Assembly: GCA_000438195.1 (NCBI GenBank)
Contig: FR903078.1
Location: forward strand, 9,845-73,844
Direction: 5' to 3'
Source: Mycoplasma sp. CAG:776
GTDB taxonomy: Bacteria; Bacillota_I; Bacilli_A; RF39; UBA660
DNA length: 64,000 nt
The position numbers and the translations under genes are program-made. The notes under the pieces were generated by a model. That model did no database searches. It was not told the DNA's origin and worked only from the letters and a program-made list of their open reading frames with translations. The stretch's first letter is position 1. The number at the start of each line of letters is the position of its first letter. This document shows, piece after piece, positions 10,202 to 46,281 of the stretch.

Positions 10202-11398
10202 ATGGAATTACTTGCAAATAAAATTCGACCTAAAACTTTGAGAGAAATTATAGGTCAAAAACATTTAGTTGGTGACGGTAAAGTTTTAACAAATTTAGTT
10301 TCCAATGGTAAAATATTTTCAATGATTTTATATGGAAAGCCTGGAATTGGCAAGACTAGTATTGCGAATGCTTTAATCAGTGAGTTACATATTCGTTCAA
10401 AATTTTTAAATGCTACTACTAATAATAAAGCAGATTTTGATATTGCAATTGAAGAAGCTAAAATGTATGGAGAAATGATTTTAGTTATAGATGAAATTCA
10501 TCGTATGAATAAAGATAAACAAGATATTTTACTTCCACATATTGAATCTGGTTTGATTATTTTAATTGGGCTTACTACTTCTAATCCTTATCATAAGATC
10601 AATCCGGCGATTAGAAGTAGATGTCAAATTTTTGAGTTAAAAGAACTGAATACAGAAGATATTATAGAAGGATTAGATAGAGCTATAGATAGTCTACCAG
10701 ATATTAAAATTGATCAAGATGCTTTAAAATATATTGCTATGCTTTCTTCTGGAGATTTTCGCTCTGCTTTAAATACTTTAGAAGTTACATATTATGCAAC
10801 AAAAGATCATAATATAACTATTGAAGAAATAAAAAAAATTAATAATAAACCTGTGTTCTTCCATGATAAAGATGAAGACGGTCATTATCAAGTGTTAAGT
10901 GCTTTTCAAAAGTCAATTCGGGGAAGTGATGTAGATGCTGCACTACATTATTTAGCAAGACTTATTGTTGCTGGAGATTTAGATAGCATTTATAGAAGGA
11001 TGAGTGTAATTGCTTATGAAGATATTGGACTTGCTAATCCAGCTATGGGACCCAAAGTAATGGCTGCTATTCATGCTGCAGAATTGGTAGGGCTTCCTGA
11101 GGCAAGAATTCCATTAGGACAAGTCGTAGCAGAACTTGCTTTATCTCCTAAAAGCAATAGTACGTATTTGGCAATTGATGCAGCAATAAATGATATTAAT
11201 AAAGGTATTTCGGGAGAAATTCCTAAGCATATTATTGAAGGTTCTCCTAATTATATTTATCCTCATAATTTTAAAAATGATTATGTAGTTCAAGAATATA
11301 TGCCTGATAAATTAAAAAATAAAAAGTATTATATAAAAAAGGATAATAAATATGAAGTAAATTTAAATAGAGTATATGATGAAATGAGGGATATTTGA
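10202..11398 (+). CDS. rarA: Replication-associated recombination protein A (RarA/MgsA AAA+ ATPase)
   Basis: Walker A GKPGIGKTS, Walker B VIDEIHRMNK, MgsA C-terminal AYEDIGLANP. Confidence 0.9.
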   Translation: MELLANKIRPKTLREIIGQKHLVGDGKVLTNLVSNGKIFSMILYGKPGIGKTSIANALISELHIRSKFLNATTNNKADFDIAIEEAKMYGEMILVIDEIHRMNKDKQDILLPHIESGLIILIGLTTSNPYHKINPAIRSRCQIFELKELNTEDIIEGLDRAIDSLPDIKIDQDALKYIAMLSSGDFRSALNTLEVTYYATKDHNITIEEIKKINNKPVFFHDKDEDGHYQVLSAFQKSIRGSDVDAALHYLARLIVAGDLDSIYRRMSVIAYEDIGLANPAMGPKVMAAIHAAELVGLPEARIPLGQVVAELALSPKSNSTYLAIDAAINDINKGISGEIPKHIIEGSPNYIYPHNFKNDYVVQEYMPDKLKNKKYYIKKDNKYEVNLNRVYDEMRDI

Positions 11399-12372
11399 TG
11401 AATATAAGTGTTATTGGAACAGGAATTTATGGAATAGCTTTAAGCTTAGATATGGTTAGTAATGGACATCATGTAAAGATGTGGACAGAAAACCAAGAAC
11501 TTGAGAAGCACTTCTTAGAAAAACATGATTTAAAACCTATTACAGATGTATTTATACCAGAAGCTATAGAAGTTACTTCGGATTTAAAAAAAGCTTTAGA
11601 AAGTACTGATTTTGTTGTTTTAGTAACATCTGCTAAATATACTAGACAAATGTGCAAACAAATAAAAAAATATTTTAATATTTTAACTCCTGTTTGTATT
11701 GCTAGTAAAGGAATTGAAAATGATACTTTTTCTTTTCTATCAGATATTGTTAGAACAGAACTTAGAGCAAAACATATTGCTATCATTTCTGGGCCTACTT
11801 TTGCAATTGATTTAATTAATCGAGAACCTGTTGCACTATCAGCGGCTGTTACAACTAATAAGGCTTTTCAAATTACTAGTTTAGCTTTTTGTAATGAAAG
11901 GCTAAAATTAAGGGAAAATAGAGATTTATATGGTACTCAGCTTTGTGGTAGTATTAAAAATGTAATTGCTATTGCTTCGGGTATTTTAGACGGTTTAGGT
12001 TATAGTGAATCTACTAGAGCATTTTTGATTACAGAATCTACTCACGATATTAAAGAATTATTAGCAGCTATGGAATGTAACCCTAAGACTATTATGTCAT
12101 TTGCGGGTATTGGTGATTTAATGCTTACAGCAAGTTCTCCTAAGAGCAGAAATTATCGTTATGGAAAACTGTTGGGTGAAAGAAAAACAGAAAAAGAGAT
12201 TGAAGAATATTTAAATAACAATACTACTGAAGGTTATTATACCCTTTTATCTATTAAAGGTTTAACTAAAAACAGAAAAATTAAAATGCCAATTATTAAT
12301 ATTATTTATGATATTGCTATTAATCATAAAGATCCAGAAATATTAGTTGATTTTCTTATTACAAAAGCATAA
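11395..12372 (+). CDS. gpsA: NAD(P)H-dependent glycerol-3-phosphate dehydrogenase
   Basis: N-terminal Rossmann ISVIGTGIYG, plus GSIKNVIAIASGI and SRNYRYG. Start overlaps the rarA stop by 4 nt. Confidence 0.88.
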   Translation: MMNISVIGTGIYGIALSLDMVSNGHHVKMWTENQELEKHFLEKHDLKPITDVFIPEAIEVTSDLKKALESTDFVVLVTSAKYTRQMCKQIKKYFNILTPVCIASKGIENDTFSFLSDIVRTELRAKHIAIISGPTFAIDLINREPVALSAAVTTNKAFQITSLAFCNERLKLRENRDLYGTQLCGSIKNVIAIASGILDGLGYSESTRAFLITESTHDIKELLAAMECNPKTIMSFAGIGDLMLTASSPKSRNYRYGKLLGERKTEKEIEEYLNNNTTEGYYTLLSIKGLTKNRKIKMPIINIIYDIAINHKDPEILVDFLITKA

Positions 12373-12390
12373 CAATAAAGTTATGCTTTT
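12363..12390 (+). terminator. Hairpin at the gpsA stop
   Basis: AAAAGCATAAC / GTTATGCTTTT perfect stem around an AATAAA loop. Confidence 0.5.
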
Positions 12391-12395
12391 AAATA

Positions 12396-12687
12396 GAATA
12401 AAAAACGAGTGAAGTTGTGTTCTATACTTCACTCTATTAATGTATTATACTTGTCTATGTGTAAGGGATTATCGTTAGTGCCATTTCCTGTTACTTTTAC
12501 ATCAGTCGACAGATTTATTACTGGATGTACACCGTGTGTGTTATGCGCGAGCCAATGGTTGAGGTTGCCACTCGGAATTTACAATGAACACGAAAGCAAG
12601 TGCACTATTATGGGAACGTCTTTTTATATACTTTGTGTAGAAGTATCATATTTCTGCTGATTATCTTTTAGGCAAAATAGATGAACC
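12396..12687 (-). ncRNA. GC-enriched structured region 3' of tcdA (unclassified RNA candidate or long structured 3' UTR)
   Basis: Local GC spike, e.g. GTACACCGTGTGTGTTATGCGCGAGCCAATGGTTGAGGTTGCCACTCGG. Bulged hairpin CGAG..CTCG. Minus-strand terminator GAGTGAAGT/ACTTCACTC followed by G and five T at 12396-12434. The only ORF here (12409-12660) has a GTG start inside that hairpin and no RBS. Confidence 0.25.
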
Positions 12688-13374
12688 TCAAGAATTATCT
12701 TGAGCTTTTATAATATCTAAAAATATATAGTTAGCTAAATAAATACCTGCAACAGAGGGAACAAAAATACATGATCCTATTATATTTTGGGTATTAATAG
12801 CATTTTCACTACTAAATACGACTGGAACTTTTAAACTTAAGTTTTCTTTTCTAGCAATGTTTCTTAACTTTTTGGCAAAAGGATCATTTTCGGTTTTATC
12901 TAAGGTAGTTATTTTTAAATATTCTGGATTAAGCTTTTTCCCTGTTCCTAAAGCACTAATTACTTTTATATGCTTGTTTTGGGCATATTTCATTAATTCT
13001 ATTTTTATTGGTATGTCATCACAGGCATCAATAATATAGTCATAATTTGTATTTATGTAAGTATTAAAATTTTCTTTCGTTAAATAAATATTATGAACTG
13101 TTAGATTTAAATTATCATTAATATCTATATATCTTTTTGTTGCTTCTTCTCCTTTTAATTTGCCTAAATTTTTATTATTGGTAATAATTTGCCTATTTAA
13201 ATTGGATTTATCAATCGTGTCACCATCGATTATTGTAATATTTTGAAATCCACTTCTTACTAAGCTTTCTAAAGCAAATCCCCCTACTCCACCGATTCCA
13301 ACTATTAATATATTTGTGTTTTGGATTTTTTTTAAGTTTTCTTTACCAATTAAAGAAATTAATCGTTCATACAT
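12688..13374 (-). CDS. tcdA: ThiF/MoeB-family adenylyltransferase, TcdA-like tRNA t6A dehydratase
   Basis: ILIVGIGGVGGFALESLVRSGF and DKSNLNRQI. Start placed at MYERLISL behind GGTGA and its own TGtTATAAT promoter. The longer track ORF runs through two hairpin terminators. Confidence 0.7.
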   Translation of the reverse strand: MYERLISLIGKENLKKIQNTNILIVGIGGVGGFALESLVRSGFQNITIIDGDTIDKSNLNRQIITNNKNLGKLKGEEATKRYIDINDNLNLTVHNIYLTKENFNTYINTNYDYIIDACDDIPIKIELMKYAQNKHIKVISALGTGKKLNPEYLKITTLDKTENDPFAKKLRNIARKENLSLKVPVVFSSENAINTQNIIGSCIFVPSVAGIYLANYIFLDIIKAQDNS

Positions 13375-13401
13375 ATTGATCACCAAAGTTATTATAACAA
13401 A

Positions 13402-13581
13402 TAAAAACCCAGATGGAAAGTCTATCTGGTGATAAAAAACCCGCTCTCGCGAGGTGGTAAGAAACATACATGCTTCTGGATTCTGGCTAATCAAGACCAG
13501 CCTTCAACTCCACATGTAATTATTCTCCCAAGGCTATCACATAGTCGGTTTTATGCTACAGATAAACTATATCCTCTAGGT
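13402..13581 (-). ncRNA. Candidate 6S-like RNA (about 180 nt)
   Basis: Extended -10 TGATATAAT (13596-13588, minus strand). The 5' segment CCTAGAGGATATAGTTTATCTG (13580-13559) pairs with the 3' segment CAGATAGACTTTCCATCTGGG (within 13431-13408). TAAAACC pairs with GGTTTTTTA further in. An ACCACC-plus-small-hairpin element (CTCGC GAGA GCGGG) lies on the 3' side. The position upstream of tcdA matches my recollection of bsrA next to yrvM in B. subtilis. Confidence 0.45.
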
Positions 13582-13644
13582 ATTTTTATTATATCACACT
13601 TTTATTAAAATATACATAAAAATTATTTACTTTACATATTTTTC

Positions 13645-13674
13645 TTGACTAATAGAAATTTATAGTGTTATAAT
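13645..13674 (+). promoter_or_regulatory. Near-consensus sigma-A type promoter with extended -10
   Basis: TTGACT (13645-13650), 18-nt spacer, TGtTATAAT (13666-13674). Confidence 0.6.
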
Positions 13675-13680
13675 CATTCT

Positions 13681-14316
13681 ACTTATTGTTCTTTGATAAT
13701 TAGATAAATGAACCATATGATAGACAAGAAGACAATCTTGTATGGGGATATCTTATGCTTATTATTTAATAGTGCGAACTTTTAAAGGATTGAGTTGGTT
13801 TAGTAGTAATACTAAACTAGGAATTACAAAGTAATAAAAAAGATATTAGCAATACTATTATAGGGTTATAAGGCACAGTCCTAATCGTAGTCATCATAAA
13901 CTTTCTTCGTAGAAAAGAAGAAGATTAACTTTAAAATTTATTAGAGTGGCATCTAAAGAATTTTAAAGAATGCCAATAAGCTATTTGCAGTTGACACATA
14001 GTGATATGTTATAAGATTAGAAACTGGTTAAAGTAGTGCAAATCTGCAAGAAAATAGATGGTTGTCGCGGTTCGATTCCGTAAAATATATGCTTTAATAT
14101 ATTCCTAAGTGCATGAAATTTGGAAGTGCAAGTCTTCTTTAGTGGTTGTAGGTAATTGAAGAATAGAGGTCGCTCCTCTATGAGGGCAATTACTGGCTAG
14201 TGGCTGAAAGAAAAAATAATTTTGTAATAGTTATTAATGTGAGAAACATCATTTATCTAATTATCAAAGGGCAATAGAAAAGATTAGACTTTATCGGTTT
14301 CTAATCTTCTTTTTTT
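13681..14316 (+). ncRNA. Large (about 635 nt) non-coding transcription unit, candidate large structured RNA of unknown class
   Basis: No ORF of 60 aa or more on either strand. Promoter directly upstream. 21-bp perfect long-range helix 13691-13711 / 14249-14269, extended to 13683/14277 by Watson-Crick pairs plus T-G pairs valid only on the plus strand. Internal hairpins GTTTAGTA-GTAA-TACTAAAC (13798-13817) and ATAGAGG-TCGCT-CCTCTAT (14163-14181). T-loop-like GGTTCGATTCC (14069-14079). Terminator AGATTAGA/TCTAATCT followed by a T-run (14281-14316). Confidence 0.55.
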
Positions 14317-16264
14317 ATCCAAATTTTGATATATCACCCATACCGCTCATGGGATCAAAATTTTCATTACTATTTTCATTGATTGGTGATGTAGGATTTA
14401 TTGTTTGGTCTTCTGTTTTTATATCTTTTTGTAACGTGCTTGTACTTGTTCCTTCTGTTACATAGTTATTCGCTATTCTTTCTTCTTTTGTTTGATATAT
14501 AGGAGAGTCTTGTTCTTGCCAACAACCTGAAACATTACAATTGGTTGAATATGGCATTGGATCTGGCATTTTTAGCTTACAAATCATTGGTATTTTGAAT
14601 GCTCCACCGAATGCTACACAATTACCAGGCTGTAATACTTTCATTTTTTCAATTACATCGGCACTAATATTAGGAAGCATTTCCTCAATGTATTTAATGT
14701 CTTTTGGGTGTGTCATTTTAAATATAAGAAAGTTGGAACATTGAGCAATTACTGTATCACTAATTTCTACTGGTCTTTGACTGATAATATCAAGTAATAC
14801 TCCATATTTACGACCTTCTTTGGCAATACGATCAAAAATATTATATCCGAGTAAGAAGGTATCACTATCTTGTTGAATATAACGATGGGCTTCTTCTAAG
14901 AAAAGATGGAATGGAATACTCGCTCTTTTTTTAAGACCTTTTGCATAATCAAATAATAATTTTGAAACAATTTTAACTATAACCTTGGCATAAGCATCAT
15001 CAATATCTTCTAAGTTGATATTTACTATTTGAGCTCGATTATTTTCTTTTCTTCCTAGTTCTTCTACAAAAGATTCAACACTTGTATATTTAGAACCATC
15101 AAAATAATTATTTACTTGTCCACCAATAATCGTGTTTAATCTTACTTGAAGAATCATCGCTTCATTATACATCGCCTGATTACCTTGAAAGCCTTCACTT
15201 ATTAAAGTGAACTCTAGGGCATTTGCTAAGTCTTTTAAGGTATAATATGCTTTTTCTGGTATTGGCATTGCTGTAATAGATTCATCAATATGTTTTAAAA
15301 TATATTCGGTAATTAATACTGATTCACCAAAATTACCATTTGAATCAATTTCAAAACATTCACTAAAGCTTCTTGTATAACCTAAACCAGGAATAACTGA
15401 ATCAAAGTTAAATTCTTTGGTGTGACATACTTCTATTACTTTGAATATTTCATTCTTTTTATAGCTAGTTGTTGAATTACTAAATAAAATGGCTATTAAA
15501 GCTTTGGCTATTAAATGATTTTTATATTTTGTAATTTCTTCACTATCGCTAGAGAATATTTTGGCATATTTAATACTACGTTCCAAAATTGGCAATTGAG
15601 AATGAGAATTAGCTTGTAATAAAAGAGCTATATCATCTAATGTAAGTAAATTTACAGGAATCTTTAATAAATAATCCGTTGGTTCAGTTGGGTTTGTGGT
15701 AATAAATTTATAGTTATAACTTGGATTAATTTTATTTAATGAACCAAAAGCATTTTTATATTCGCCATAAGCATCAAAGAAAAACATATTAGCGTTATAA
15801 GTTACCGTTTTTGGATTACTAAAAATATTTTGAATAATTCTTGATACACCACATGATTTACCAGAACCACTATTACCAAATATCGCTAAGTGATTTGAAA
15901 ATAAATCATTTATATCTGGGCATATTTGAAAACCTTTATATGTAGCACTTTCTCCTAATGTAAAGCTTTTATTACTTAATGTTCCCACTAATTCAAGTAA
16001 TTCTTCACTATTAATAATTCTTAAAGTACTAGATAATAAAGGTTTTCTTATTACACCATTTACATATCTAGAGCCAATATATTCTCCTAAGAATCTAATT
16101 TTGATTTCTTCATCATTTAATTCAATAACTTCACCTAATATTCTTTGATCCTTATCTTCAAATATTACATGAATGTTCATTAAATCAGCAGTAATTGTAT
16201 CTTTACTTTTGTTTTCTACATGTGCAATGTTATCACTAATATATAATATTTTGCCAAATATCAT
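14315..16264 (-). CDS. HerA-like (DUF87) P-loop ATPase
   Basis: Walker A FGNSGSGKSCGV, Walker B HLFLEEAHRYI, N-terminal barrel-like region typical of HerA/FtsK-clade ATPases, low-complexity C-terminal tail. Confidence 0.75.
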   Translation of the reverse strand: MIFGKILYISDNIAHVENKSKDTITADLMNIHVIFEDKDQRILGEVIELNDEEIKIRFLGEYIGSRYVNGVIRKPLLSSTLRIINSEELLELVGTLSNKSFTLGESATYKGFQICPDINDLFSNHLAIFGNSGSGKSCGVSRIIQNIFSNPKTVTYNANMFFFDAYGEYKNAFGSLNKINPSYNYKFITTNPTEPTDYLLKIPVNLLTLDDIALLLQANSHSQLPILERSIKYAKIFSSDSEEITKYKNHLIAKALIAILFSNSTTSYKKNEIFKVIEVCHTKEFNFDSVIPGLGYTRSFSECFEIDSNGNFGESVLITEYILKHIDESITAMPIPEKAYYTLKDLANALEFTLISEGFQGNQAMYNEAMILQVRLNTIIGGQVNNYFDGSKYTSVESFVEELGRKENNRAQIVNINLEDIDDAYAKVIVKIVSKLLFDYAKGLKKRASIPFHLFLEEAHRYIQQDSDTFLLGYNIFDRIAKEGRKYGVLLDIISQRPVEISDTVIAQCSNFLIFKMTHPKDIKYIEEMLPNISADVIEKMKVLQPGNCVAFGGAFKIPMICKLKMPDPMPYSTNCNVSGCWQEQDSPIYQTKEERIANNYVTEGTSTSTLQKDIKTEDQTINPTSPINENSNENFDPMSGMGDISKFG

Positions 16265-16363: not shown

Positions 16364-17338
16364 TTATTTTCCACTCCATGTTTCATACCAATTTTTTAAC
16401 TTATTTAATCCACTACTAGCTAGATCTTTTAAAAATTCCCAAGTTAAGCCAAAACTTTCTTTTAAATCTTGAAATCCTTCTTTGGCACTTGTACATAAAT
16501 CGTCATGATTCTCACAAATATTACTTGTAATATCTAAATAAGTATTCACTATTAAATTTTTAATACTAGTATAAACTTTATTGGCACCATTACTTATCGT
16601 TTCTTTGTATCCTGGAAAAACATTATCTATTTTATCATCAATCCATAAAGCGGCTTTTAATACTTCTAATTTAGCTGAGGTAGTTAATTCATTAAAAGTG
16701 TGACCTGCTATTTTGCCATTATAAAATAGGAAATCAACAACCGTGATAAAGCCACTTTTTAAAGTATCTGTTATTCCTTTATCGGCATCGCTTTGAATGG
16801 TATTTACATATTCTAATACGGCTTCATCGGCAGATTTGCTAGTTACATTATTATTAGAATTGTTGTTAGTTGGCGTTTTGTTAGTATTATTATTGCTTGT
16901 ATGATTTTTATTTGGAGAATTATTGGTATTTGTTTTTCCGTTTGTTTCATTTAAATTGGTGTTCTTTCCTTGGTTGCCGTTTATAATATTTTCTGATGTA
17001 TTTGTAGTGTTATTTTCTTCTAATTCTTCTTCTGGTTTATTTTTTTTTATTAAAGTTTCTTTTATGGCAGATATTTCTTTAGGATTCGTAGAATCTTTTA
17101 GACTGCTTCTTTTGTAAGTAACAGTTATTTCATCTCCTATTTCATAAATATTGGAAATATTATTTATTATGTAGTCTTCATTTTCTGTTTCGATCATGAT
17201 ATAGCCATCACCACTTATTAATACTGTACCAGTTATATTTAATTCCTCATTTTCTTTTGTCAAAAAATAAATGGCAAGAGATGCTCCAATAAAAAGAATA
17301 ATTAGCAAGATGATTAGGATAGTTCTCTTTTTAATCAT
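16364..17338 (-). CDS. Membrane-anchored protein with Asn/Thr-rich linker, unknown function
   Basis: N-terminal TM ILIILLIILFIGASLAIYF, an N/T-rich low-complexity stretch of about 60 aa, and a C-terminal helical domain. Confidence 0.65.
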   Translation of the reverse strand: MIKKRTILIILLIILFIGASLAIYFLTKENEELNITGTVLISGDGYIMIETENEDYIINNISNIYEIGDEITVTYKRSSLKDSTNPKEISAIKETLIKKNKPEEELEENNTTNTSENIINGNQGKNTNLNETNGKTNTNNSPNKNHTSNNNTNKTPTNNNSNNNVTSKSADEAVLEYVNTIQSDADKGITDTLKSGFITVVDFLFYNGKIAGHTFNELTTSAKLEVLKAALWIDDKIDNVFPGYKETISNGANKVYTSIKNLIVNTYLDITSNICENHDDLCTSAKEGFQDLKESFGLTWEFLKDLASSGLNKLKNWYETWSGK

Positions 17339-46021: not shown

Positions 46022-46097
46022 GTCTCCTTAGCTCAGCTGGTAGAGCAACTGACTCTTAATCAGTGGGTCTAGGGTTCGAATCCCTAAGGGGACACCA
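46022..46097 (+). tRNA. tRNA-Lys (anticodon CTT)
   Basis: Acceptor GTCTCCT/AGGGGAC, D-loop AGCTCAGCTGGTAGAGC, anticodon loop CT-CTT-AA, T-arm GGTTCGAATCC, encoded CCA. Confidence 0.95.
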
Positions 46098-46120
46098 TTA
46101 ATTTATTTGCTGATAAAGAT

Positions 46121-46197
<77 letters not shown>

Positions 46198-46204
46198 TTT
46201 TTTT

Positions 46205-46281
46205 GGCCAGTTGGTGAAGCGGCTTAACACACTGCCCTTTCACGGCAGCATTCACGGGTTCGAATCCCGTACTGGTCACCA
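46205..46281 (+). tRNA. tRNA-Glu (anticodon TTC)
   Basis: Acceptor GGCCAGT/ACTGGTC, anticodon stem CTGCC/GGCAG with loop CT-TTC-AC, T-arm GGTTCGAATCC, encoded CCA. Confidence 0.93.

Follow-up and report, generated by a model that had tools for sequence, protein, structure and literature searches.

The interval 13645-14316 of the window (the whole 64-kb stretch of DNA that was analysed) is, with a probability that we put at about 95%, a stand-alone chromosomal gene for a ROOL RNA (RF03087) in low-GC Bacilli related to Candidatus Caccenecus. ROOL stands for Rumen-Originating, Ornate, Large; it has been a curated Rfam family since 2017 and its cage structure was solved in 2025. An earlier note, made from the raw sequence, had proposed that the interval holds a dedicated plus-strand gene for a large structured RNA in the size range of ROOL or OLE, without assigning it to a class. 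This was borne out by a match to RF03087 over the helix-enclosed segment, well above the gathering score; the family is already known, and the unit is thus a real large structured RNA gene and not a new kind of RNA. The discovery value is small, as a routine cmscan annotates the locus. The locus is of modest value as a clean natural example: one chromosomal ROOL copy that has a promoter and a terminator to itself and stands apart from both tRNA arrays and phage genes. The case also illustrates that a reading of raw sequence can correctly spot a large structured RNA, including its strand, its boundaries and one pseudoknot.

Relation to the ROOL family and to other large RNAs

The features of the unit are collected in Table 1. 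The check with Rfam models that the earlier note had proposed was run and recovered ROOL at 178.8 bits (gathering score 99.1, E 2e-38; a 63.6-bit composition-bias correction is included in the score), covering model positions 1-574 of 574 without truncation. RF03087 was the sole Rfam family found on the plus strand at E up to 1, and the Rfam scan returned one ROOL copy in the 64-kb window. The same gene in strain- and species-level relatives scored 168-181 bits. The model contains 159 base pairs, of which 148 are realised in the window (137 canonical and 11 non-canonical) and 11 are not. The length of 580 nt compares with a family mean of 581 nt (PMC5737381). Upper-case consensus positions of the model are occupied by the core motifs GGUCGCUCC (14168-14176), GUGGCUGAA (14200-14208) and AAUGCCAAUAAG (13969-13980), and the AAGUAG and GAAA junction residues align to such positions as well.

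Table 1. Positions of the ROOL gene, its signals and its structural elements in the window
Feature	Position	Strand	Basis or detail
Sigma-70-type promoter, extended -10	13645..13674	+	TTGACT (13645-13650), 18-nt spacer, TG-n-TATAAT ending at 13674
Closing helix P1, 5' arm	13683..13711	+	complementary to 14249..14277
ROOL RNA (RF03087), 580 nt	13689..14268	+	full-length covariance-model match
GNRA-capped hairpin GUUUAGUA-GUAA-UACUAAAC	13798..13817	+	RF03087 alignment, model positions 109-134
Hairpin loop GUGGCA (13946-13951) and downstream strand AUGCCA (13970-13975)	13946..13975	+	complementary; family-wide loop-strand contact (kissing or pseudoknot)
Pseudoknot 5' strand UUGCAG	13985..13990	+	pairs with CUGCAA (14044-14049), 5' flank of the linker
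Variable linker (the family's large hairpin loop)	14042..14108	+	model loop positions ~353-407
T-arm-like GCGG-UUCGAUU-CCGU	~14066-14083	+	in linker, clade-specific
Hairpin AUAGAGG-UCGCU-CCUCUAU with conserved family motif GGUCGCUCC	14163..14181	+	RF03087 alignment; G-C to A-U compensatory change
Closing helix P1, 3' arm	14249..14277	+	complementary to 13683..13711
Intrinsic terminator, 8-9 bp stem, 11-nt loop, T-run	14281..14316	+	sequence, folding, conservation
Neighbour genes rarA, gpsA, tcdA, 6S RNA, herA-like, gatCAB	around the ROOL unit

The window copy shares with the ROOLs the full-length model match, the size, a long P1, the multistem architecture, the GNRA-capped hairpin, the motifs GGUCGCUCC, GUGGCUGAA and AAUGCCAAUAA, two covarying contacts, a large variable linker at the family position, the lack of an associated protein gene and a host among the Bacillota. 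It differs in its P1, which is extended to 29 bp, and in its setting outside a tRNA array or prophage, where it forms a promoter-to-terminator unit between housekeeping genes, divergent from 6S RNA. Compared with the phage copies that were sampled it scores about half (179 vs 300-395 bits) and is AT-rich (30% vs 40-48% GC), and no blastn-level similarity to phage ROOL copies was found.

Two other ornate RNAs were considered. OLE resembles the unit in size (~600 nt), ornate fold and Bacillota host. It forms dimers, occurs in anaerobes that are extremophiles, and goes with the ole-associated protein genes (oapA and others). The region gave no OLE match in Rfam at E up to 1 and no oap-like genes were present among the neighbours. 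GOLLD, from bacteria and phages, is likewise large and ornate and builds cages of RNA alone, into which a variable linker projects; its sequence and secondary structure are distinct, it is larger (700-830 nt) and assembles into 10-14-mers, and the region gave no GOLLD match in Rfam even at E up to 1.

Transcription signals, fold and conservation

The near-consensus promoter described in the earlier note (TTGACT, 18-nt spacer, TG and TATAAT) is present and agrees with the consensus at 11 of 12 positions; no other promoter-like site in 13200-14500 is as good. Promoter-like sites as a class are no more frequent in this AT-rich region than in shuffles (7 found, 7.0 expected), and it is because the -35 and -10 hexamers are invariant across four species while the spacer varies in sequence and length that the promoter was taken as functional. 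Transcription is predicted from the sequence to start near A13681. The terminator, which had been placed directly after the closing helix, was also recovered: it consists of AGATTAGA (14281-14288), the 11-nt loop, TCTAATCT (14300-14307) and TCTTTTTTT up to 14316, and its stem is invariant in the other species, with a variable loop. Its stability is modest on the plus strand (-7.0 to -7.6 kcal/mol, z -1.1) and higher on the minus strand (-9.0 kcal/mol, z -2.6), where it is followed by UUUUCUAUU; it probably works in both directions and is then common to the ROOL gene and the herA-like gene. With fewer than 3 G-C pairs in its stem it escaped the consensus scan. Together the two signals predict a plus-strand transcript of ~636 nt (13681-14316).

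The closing helix proved to be as described, with 29 pairs of which three are T-G. The arms 13684-13711 and 14249-14276 (28 nt) are 93% complementary, and addition of 13683/14277 brings P1 to 26 Watson-Crick and 3 T-G pairs (13683, 13689, 13690), against 16-17 bp in the family model. The 21-mer of the arm occurs twice in the 64-kb window, at both arms only, with 0.03 matches expected by chance. Among species P1 shows one compensatory change (U-A to C-G) besides changes of G-U to A-U. The plus-strand assignment, which the earlier note had argued from the T-G pairs, was upheld: 137 of the 148 model pairs are canonical on the plus strand against 127 if the minus strand is taken, and other species have T-A in place of the outer-helix T-G pairs. 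The 636-nt plus strand folds at -166.2 kcal/mol (z -6.7 vs shuffles) and the minus strand at -128.0 kcal/mol. An RNA read from the minus strand was rejected on the strand of the model, the G-U pairs, this energy difference and the orientation of promoter and terminator.

The internal elements that had been pointed out, i.e. the GNRA hairpin, ATAGAGG/CCTCTAT, ATTTGCAG (13983-13990), CTGCAA (14044-14049) and GGTTCGATTCC (14069-14079), all lie at the places given for them. The GNRA hairpin is the counterpart of the conserved GUGA-capped 11-bp hairpin of the family and shows a compensatory G-C to A-U change. The alternative pairing of ATTTGCAG with CTGCAA corresponds to a conserved ROOL pseudoknot. 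Three conserved pseudoknot or tertiary pairings have been described for ROOL (Weinberg 2017, PMC5737381). Two contacts are intact in the window and covary between the window clade and the phage ROOLs: i) GUGGCA/AUGCCA, with the variants UGGCA/UGCCA (window and L050), UGAGA/UCUCA (L051 and L057) and UGGU/ACCA (L071); and ii) UUGCAG/CUGCAA, with the variants UUGCC/GGCAA (L051 and L050) and UCACG/CGUGA (L071). The third family pseudoknot, which connects the 3' flank of the linker to an internal loop, is a covarying 5-bp pairing in the phage ROOLs and is represented in the window by a weak 4-bp UCCU/AGGG match. The correspondence of these pairings to the published pseudoknot numbers is our inference. 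Some of the conserved ROOL pairings were later shown to be kissing loops between subunits.

The ROOL gene was found in the same position in three other lineages of uncultured gut Bacilli, and the cassette of ~670 nt is present in the window and in L012, L020, L026 and L081. The RNA is ~91-93% identical across species and the TcdA protein 67-70%, and variable positions make up 11% of the RNA, 41% of the promoter/leader and 56% of the 3' flank. By this sequence comparison purifying selection acts more strongly on the ROOL RNA than on the protein genes that flank it. When the alignment was scored against the model pairs, 91.6% of the cells were paired, against 38-44% in slid controls, and compensatory double changes, which within the clade derive from just three independent lineages, were seen in 6 pairs (0-2 in the controls), spread over six helices.

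Further copies were sought with two motif patterns. The first, GTGGCA..AATGCCAATAAG..TTGA, gave 29 matches in genome contigs; three of the 6 that were scanned with Rfam were ROOL (L012, L020 and L026), and most of the other matches, for instance those in the Campylobacter concisus group, look like chance when judged by taxon. It gave no match in viral contigs, because the phage ROOLs carry covarying versions of the motif. The second pattern, GGTCGCTCC..AGTGGCTGAA, recovered 44 viral contigs, and 17 of the 20 that were scanned with Rfam were ROOL.

Genomic setting and alternative readings

The host, a relative of Candidatus Caccenecus, belongs to the low-GC Bacilli of the gut and is uncultured. 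The ROOL gene and the 6S RNA gene lie back to back and are divergently transcribed, and the herA-like gene is convergent with ROOL, its stop codon (14315-14317) being overlapped by the T-run of the terminator. Next to the herA-like gene lies unk324, encoding a protein of 324 aa. When the flanking ORFs were checked one by one, only housekeeping genes were found in the ~14 kb around the ROOL gene, with a single recombinase beyond rarA and no phage structural genes. tRNA genes were absent from 13300-14500 (ARAGORN) and from within 30 kb of the gene, the nearest lying at 46022-46278. Blastn of the unit against phage and plasmid collections gave no DNA match, and there is therefore no evidence of a known mobile carrier.

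Such a setting is not the typical one for a ROOL (tRNA neighbours and/or a prophage), which is frequent and not obligatory. The original description of the family by Weinberg et al. in 2017 included non-prophage sites (PMC5737381), and chromosomal copies, such as that of E. faecalis, are documented (PMC12990946), so that a stand-alone chromosomal context falls within the known range of ROOL. A prophage remnant, or a recent acquisition from a phage that no longer functions in the host, would fit the typical location of ROOLs in tRNA arrays of phages and prophages (viral contigs; PMC12286853), the presence and absence among close relatives that gain or loss would produce, and the non-essentiality of ROOL in L. 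salivarius (PMC12286853). The housekeeping surroundings and the distance to the nearest tRNA speak against it, as does the GC content, which is like that of the host-like flanks and unlike that of phage ROOLs. Moreover, across three lineages conservation is far higher in the RNA than in the flanks, and promoter and terminator are intact and conserved, which argues for ongoing selection and not decay; we therefore hold this reading to be very unlikely.

The adjacency of the herA-like gene suggests another reading, in which ROOL acts jointly with the HerA-like ATPase and the adjacent 324-aa protein, perhaps as part of a HerA-type module for defence or translocation or as its regulator. The ROOL unit adjoins the 3' end of the herA-like gene, the two apparently have the bidirectional terminator in common, the HerA-like protein strongly matches anti-phage HerA profiles, and every relative that bears ROOL keeps the order ROOL, herA, unk324 and has an unusually conserved HerA (89-90% identity). 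Against this, the order gatB, herA, tcdA, gpsA, rarA is kept over a range of HerA identities from 57% to 90%, mostly without ROOL, and among 43 metagenome loci that were examined from the HerA side ROOL was found in the closest clade only. Two close relatives keep the flanking genes, including herA-tcdA, without ROOL: L082 (HerA 88% identity) has a 288-nt spacer with 6S only, and L080 (HerA 90% identity) has a different insert. At the 44 ROOL-candidate viral loci no homologue of HerA, unk324 or TcdA was detected by tblastn, and no protein partner has been reported for any ROOL (PMC12286853). HerA as a partner of ROOL in general is effectively refuted by the ROOL-less herA-tcdA relatives and the HerA-less viral loci, and we hold the reading as a whole to be very unlikely, a link confined to this clade being a conjecture. 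The ~950-nt spacer of L080 was itself considered as the site of a second unknown RNA, which was rejected as it contains a frameshifted GNAT-like ORF and the 6S gene.

Less probable still is a MITE, a non-autonomous mobile element that would have the 21-28 nt arms as its terminal inverted repeats and the interior as cargo instead of a functional RNA. The discrete cassette, absent from L082 and L080 with the same flanks, would agree with it, but both arms are internal to the cassette, whose promoter precedes the first arm and whose terminator follows the second, and no inverted repeat is formed by the cassette ends (CTTGACT... and ...TCTTTTTTTAT). Set against the empty site of L082, to which homology stops ~2 nt upstream of the -35 hexamer, the junctions show low-complexity T-runs only, without terminal inverted repeats or a convincing target-site duplication. 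The arm sequence and ROOL do not recur elsewhere in the 64-kb window, the phage and plasmid collections hold no DNA match, and the arms form the P1 of a family that keeps this helix with entirely different sequences, the changes within the clade being compensatory or from G-U to A-U. Features of a MITE and codon-like conservation had been named in the earlier note as grounds against its reading, and neither was found. The chance that the unit encodes one or more small proteins, with its conservation reflecting coding constraint, is practically nil: the longest ORF in 13645-14314 is one of 30 aa (13742-13834, plus strand) and none reaches 60 aa, in line with the earlier note, a 3-nt periodicity is absent from the 66 variable positions (24/19/23), the substitutions in helices are compensatory with 15 of the 19 variable pairs canonical in all sequences, and the covariance-model match covers the whole unit.

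Proposed role and the linker

For the ROOL gene we propose that the sigma-70-type promoter would drive synthesis of the predicted ~636-nt RNA up to the terminator, and that this transcript would fold as a 580-nt ROOL closed by the 29-bp P1, with at least two of the three pseudoknot or kissing contacts of the family. Folding would proceed without a protein partner, to judge from the solved ROOLs (env-120, E. faecalis, Firmicutes CAG:227 and L. salivarius). ROOLs self-assemble into hollow RNA cages, as seen in the cryo-EM structures of Kretsch et al. 2025 (PMC12286853) and in those of Ling et al. and Wang et al., summarised in PMC12990946 and PMC12515178; deposited ROOL structures are PDB 9MDS, 9J3T and 9J6Y, and about 20 mM Mg2+ was used for the E. 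faecalis and env-120 ROOLs. By homology the window RNA may likewise assemble into a dihedral hollow cage ~28 nm across, held together by kissing loops and A-minor contacts, and homology alone suggests that it would be a hexamer or an octamer. In the ROOL of L. salivarius a shortened apical stem goes along with hexamers in place of octamers. Our working guess is that the cage serves as an abundant, dispensable RNA scaffold or container tied to tRNA and translation biology or to phage-host conflict, because the family usually sits in phage tRNA arrays. In the lineage of the window ROOL would have been domesticated as an independent host gene, divergent from 6S RNA; strong purifying selection together with presence and absence among close relatives is the mark of a host function that is useful yet can be dispensed with.

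In the solved structures the linker is disordered and points into the cage, and by homology the linker of the window RNA would also lie inside. It aligns to RF03087 with low posterior probability and differs from those of phage ROOLs in length and sequence. Within the clade its 5' half is near-invariant and its 3' half is variable, with an indel. It contains the T-arm-like GCGG-UUCGAUU-CCGU, which is confined to the window clade and absent from the phage ROOLs examined. Of the T-loop-like GGTTCGATTCC that the earlier note had singled out the sequence stands, whereas the structure does not: it lies in the variable linker, without independent support from ARAGORN or folding. The element is not the predicted local minimum-energy fold and has no thermodynamic support. 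An embedded tRNA was rejected, as ARAGORN found none and Rfam gave no tRNA match at E up to 1.

We consider it an unlikely conjecture that the Caccenecus-like clade, having domesticated a ROOL with its own promoter back to back with 6S, has also fixed in the inward-pointing linker a near-perfect mimic of a tRNA T-arm (with a G53-C61-type closing pair and a UUCGAUU loop). If functional, the element might bind a factor that recognises T-arms (TruB, TrmA or a tRNA-binding protein) or dock a tRNA elbow, and would be the first sequence-specific clue to what a ROOL cage contains or recruits. It would then parallel the whole tRNA that some GOLLDs embed in their inward linker (PMC12990946), of which it is loosely reminiscent. 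The sole substitution in the element within the clade is a C to U change in the L026/L081 lineage, by which a C-A mismatch becomes a U-A pair.

A full-length ROOL RNA with its own promoter and terminator

The whole window was scanned against Rfam 15 at gathering thresholds, and the spacer between tcdA and the HerA-like gene was found to contain a member of ROOL (RF03087), a family of large structured RNAs: the match (178.8 bits, gathering score 99.1, E 2e-38) is complete over the model (positions 1-574 of 574), and a looser scan of 13300-14400 (E up to 1) recovered no family except ROOL on the plus strand. An earlier note, made from the sequence alone, had proposed a large structured RNA of unnamed class, to be compared with Rfam models; the comparison supports that interpretation and the class is ROOL. 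The family description already covers copies outside prophages and chromosomal copies (PMC5737381; PMC12990946), which makes this locus, though divergent and neatly packaged, an ordinary representative of a known family.

Features of the ROOL locus and its surroundings (window positions)
Feature	Position	Strand	Remarks
Possible gene, 83-aa ORF (orf83)	12409-12660	+	between gpsA and tcdA; no match in Pfam, NCBIfam or PADLOC
6S/SsrS RNA (RF00013)	13402-13585	-	50.6 bits, gathering score 46.4
Promoter	13645-13674		TTGACT, 18-nt spacer, TATAAT with upstream TG (TGtTATAAT); promoter scan
ROOL RNA (RF03087)	13689-14268	+
T-arm-like element	14069-14079		GGTTCGATTCC, in the linker; with flanks near-canonical T-arm GCGG-UUCGAUU-CCGU
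Terminator hairpin	14281-14307		AGATTAGA/TCTAATCT, T-run to 14316
HerA-like ATPase (DUF87)	14315-16264	-	anti-phage HerA profile, PADLOC PDLC04102, 358 bits
unk324, 324-aa protein	16364-17338	-	faint C-terminal PDC-S02 similarity only; no Pfam or NCBIfam match
Three tRNA genes	46022-46278	+	only tRNAs of the window, ~32 kb from ROOL

The promoter-to-terminator unit described in the earlier note was recovered, and so was its lack of coding content: the ORFs listed for 13300-14700 include none of at least 60 aa on either strand within 13645-14314, where the longest has 30 aa. With 11 of 12 positions matched, the promoter is the top-scoring site of the region, in which promoter-like sites are no commoner than in shuffles (7 found versus 7.0 expected). 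The terminator hairpin is AT-rich, of only modest stability, and was missed by a consensus terminator scan. Among relatives, changes in the promoter spare both hexamers and fall in the spacer, and those in the terminator spare the stem and fall in the loop. Read directly from the sequence, the two signals predict a plus-strand transcript of ~636 nt.

An inverted-repeat search returned the arms of the closing helix P1 (13684-13711 and 14249-14276; 28 nt, 93% complementary), which with 13683/14277 added form 29 pairs, 26 Watson-Crick and three T-G, exactly as the earlier note had it; the internal elements it listed were likewise all located. The GNRA hairpin, the ATAGAGG/CCTCTAT hairpin and the closing helix each correspond to a helix of the ROOL model, whose consensus structure, projected onto the window, is realised for 148 of 159 pairs. 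Canonical among these are 137 on the plus strand (12 of them G-U) versus 127 on the minus strand, and the outer T-G pairs of P1 are T-A in other species, which is consistent with a plus-strand RNA and bears out the argument that had been drawn from those pairs. The minimum free energy of the predicted 636-nt transcript is -166.2 kcal/mol (z -6.7; complement -128.0 kcal/mol), and its structure reproduces P1 and many model helices. Sequence and comparison support the ROOL fold with P1 lengthened to 29 bp.

Conservation of the fold and its tertiary contacts

Many gut-metagenome contigs with the same locus encode an identical HerA-like protein, and ROOL is present in every one of these that was examined. 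A core-motif scan covering one genome per species showed that three further MAGs of uncultured Bacilli also carry the RNA (Candidatus Caccenecus avistercoris, Bacilli HGM10802 and another Bacilli bin), and a metagenome contig, L081, carries a copy identical to one of theirs; the order tcdA, ROOL, herA-like, unk324 is common to all. RNA identity between lineages is 91-93%, that of the TcdA protein only 67-70%, and variable positions make up 11% of the RNA versus 41% of the promoter/leader and 56% of the 3' flank. On the model structure 91.6% of the alignment cells are paired, versus 38-44% in controls with the pairing partners slid by one to three columns; six pairs, each in a different helix, carry compensatory double changes (0-2 pairs in the controls), and 15 of the 19 variable pairs are canonical in every sequence. 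Codon-like conservation, the alternative raised in the earlier note, was not seen, the variable positions being spread without 3-nt periodicity (24, 19, 23). The comparison, which comprises only three independent lineages in the clade, supports purifying selection on the ROOL fold.

Model-anchored alignments show family-wide covariation of two tertiary pairings, both intact in the window: a hairpin loop with a downstream strand (UGGCA/UGCCA in the window and in L050; UGAGA/UCUCA in L051 and L057; UGGU/ACCA in L071), and a junction strand with the 5' flank of the linker, the variable hairpin loop (UUGCAG/CUGCAA in the window; UUGCC/GGCAA in L051 and L050; UCACG/CGUGA in L071). The latter contact is the alternative ATTTGCAG/CTGCAA pairing picked out in the earlier note. 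A third pairing, between the 3' flank of the linker and an internal loop, comprises 5 bp and covaries in phage ROOLs; the window has only a 4-bp UCCU/AGGG match.

The HerA-like neighbour and the variable spacer

The flanking genes are rarA/mgsA, gpsA, the ThiF-family gene tcdA, the HerA-like ATPase gene, unk324 and gatB. The ~14 kb around ROOL contain no phage genes, and the nearest tRNA is more than 30 kb away. Immediately upstream of tcdA comes the 6S RNA, whose gene and ROOL are divergently transcribed (~95 nt between predicted starts); the adjacency of 6S to tcdA recurs at the distant syntenic loci L086 (62 bits), L113 and L120. The long version of the tcdA ORF, with a TTG start (12688-13494), extends into the 6S gene, which makes the ATG at 13374 the more probable tcdA start. 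One metagenome contig (L033, 9562-13950 versus window 10202-12660) departs from the window beyond tcdA, although its ROOL, HerA and TcdA are near-identical: where the window has orf83, gpsA, rarA and the recombinase, L033 encodes an HTH regulator, an unknown protein of 584 aa, a T2SS-F-like protein and a prepilin peptidase. The difference is a rearrangement at strain level that breaks at the tcdA 3' end.

Because the HerA-like protein strongly matches anti-phage HerA profiles, a functional link with ROOL was considered. However, none of the viral ROOL loci recovered encodes a homologue of HerA, unk324 or TcdA, and among 43 metagenome loci with HerA relatives at 42-90% identity, in which the order gatB, herA, tcdA, gpsA, rarA is widely conserved, only those of the closest clade contain ROOL. 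The HerA-like gene behaves as a core syntenic gene between gatCAB and 6S/tcdA (lineages at 57-90% identity); unk324 was found by tblastn in the closest clade only, and the gap between gatB and herA in L083 and L113 could not accommodate it. As ROOL is confined, among these loci, to the closest clade and is absent from the other relatives' spacers, its adjacency to HerA is not a functional association.

The herA-tcdA spacer is a variable slot, which in the window's clade holds ROOL and 6S. It comprises 288 nt with the herA terminator and 6S only in L082 (5936-6223; 88% HerA identity), and in L080 (3782-4733; 90% HerA identity) 6S plus an ORF for a GNAT-like acetyltransferase, frameshifted, which takes the place of ROOL. 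Among more distant relatives it holds 6S alone (L113, L120 and L086) or, in L087-type lineages (L087, 5825-7837), two unknown ORFs (319 and 340 aa). Alignment of filled and empty sites delimits a cassette of ~13645-14317, promoter through terminator, whose ends have no terminal inverted repeats, the junctions showing T-runs only. Together with the covariation of P1 and the single copy in the window, where the 21-mer arm has no further occurrence in the 64 kb (0.03 chance matches expected), this rules out a MITE, the mobile-element reading that the earlier note had raised against its own.

Phage ROOLs, the linker and the cage

With a second motif, 44 viral contigs were recovered, and 17 of the 20 scanned contain ROOL (266-395 bits). 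Several of these ROOLs lie within tRNA arrays and overlap a tRNA gene at either end; in L046 (1158-1858), L057 (1140-1920), L051 (210-834) and L066 (6140-6765) the ends share a few nucleotides with flanking tRNA genes on one or both sides. The overlap suggests that phage ROOLs are co-transcribed with the tRNAs and released by tRNA-processing enzymes, whereas the window ROOL has its own promoter and terminator. The window ROOL has no blastn-level similarity to the viral copies and a lower GC content (30% versus 40-48%), and is therefore a divergent family member. In L078 a RAGATH-21 RNA (RF03097, 92 bits; 2224-2299) lies ~500 nt upstream of the phage ROOL.

The T-loop-like motif of the earlier note is present in the linker, in its conserved 5' half (the 3' half is variable, with an indel), and is restricted to the window's clade; neither ARAGORN nor Rfam calls a tRNA there, and the local minimum-energy fold differs from a T-arm and is no better than shuffles. 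The element has a single substitution, a C-to-U change in the lineage of L026 and L081 that would convert a C-A mismatch to a U-A pair. Some members of another RNA class, GOLLD, carry a tRNA in an inward-facing linker (PMC12990946), a loose analogy; with three lineages too few to judge, the element is a low-probability lead.

ROOL structures have been solved for RNAs of E. faecalis, Firmicutes CAG:227, L. salivarius and a rumen metagenome; these RNAs self-assemble protein-free into dihedral octamers or hexamers ~28 nm across, with the variable linker disordered within the cage (PMC12286853; PMC12990946; PMC12515178). By homology, the window ROOL would form such a cage, with its linker (14042-14108) inside. 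In L. salivarius, ROOL matches 16S rRNA in abundance but is non-essential (PMC12286853), and the presence/absence polymorphism among the relatives of the window fits a dispensable function.
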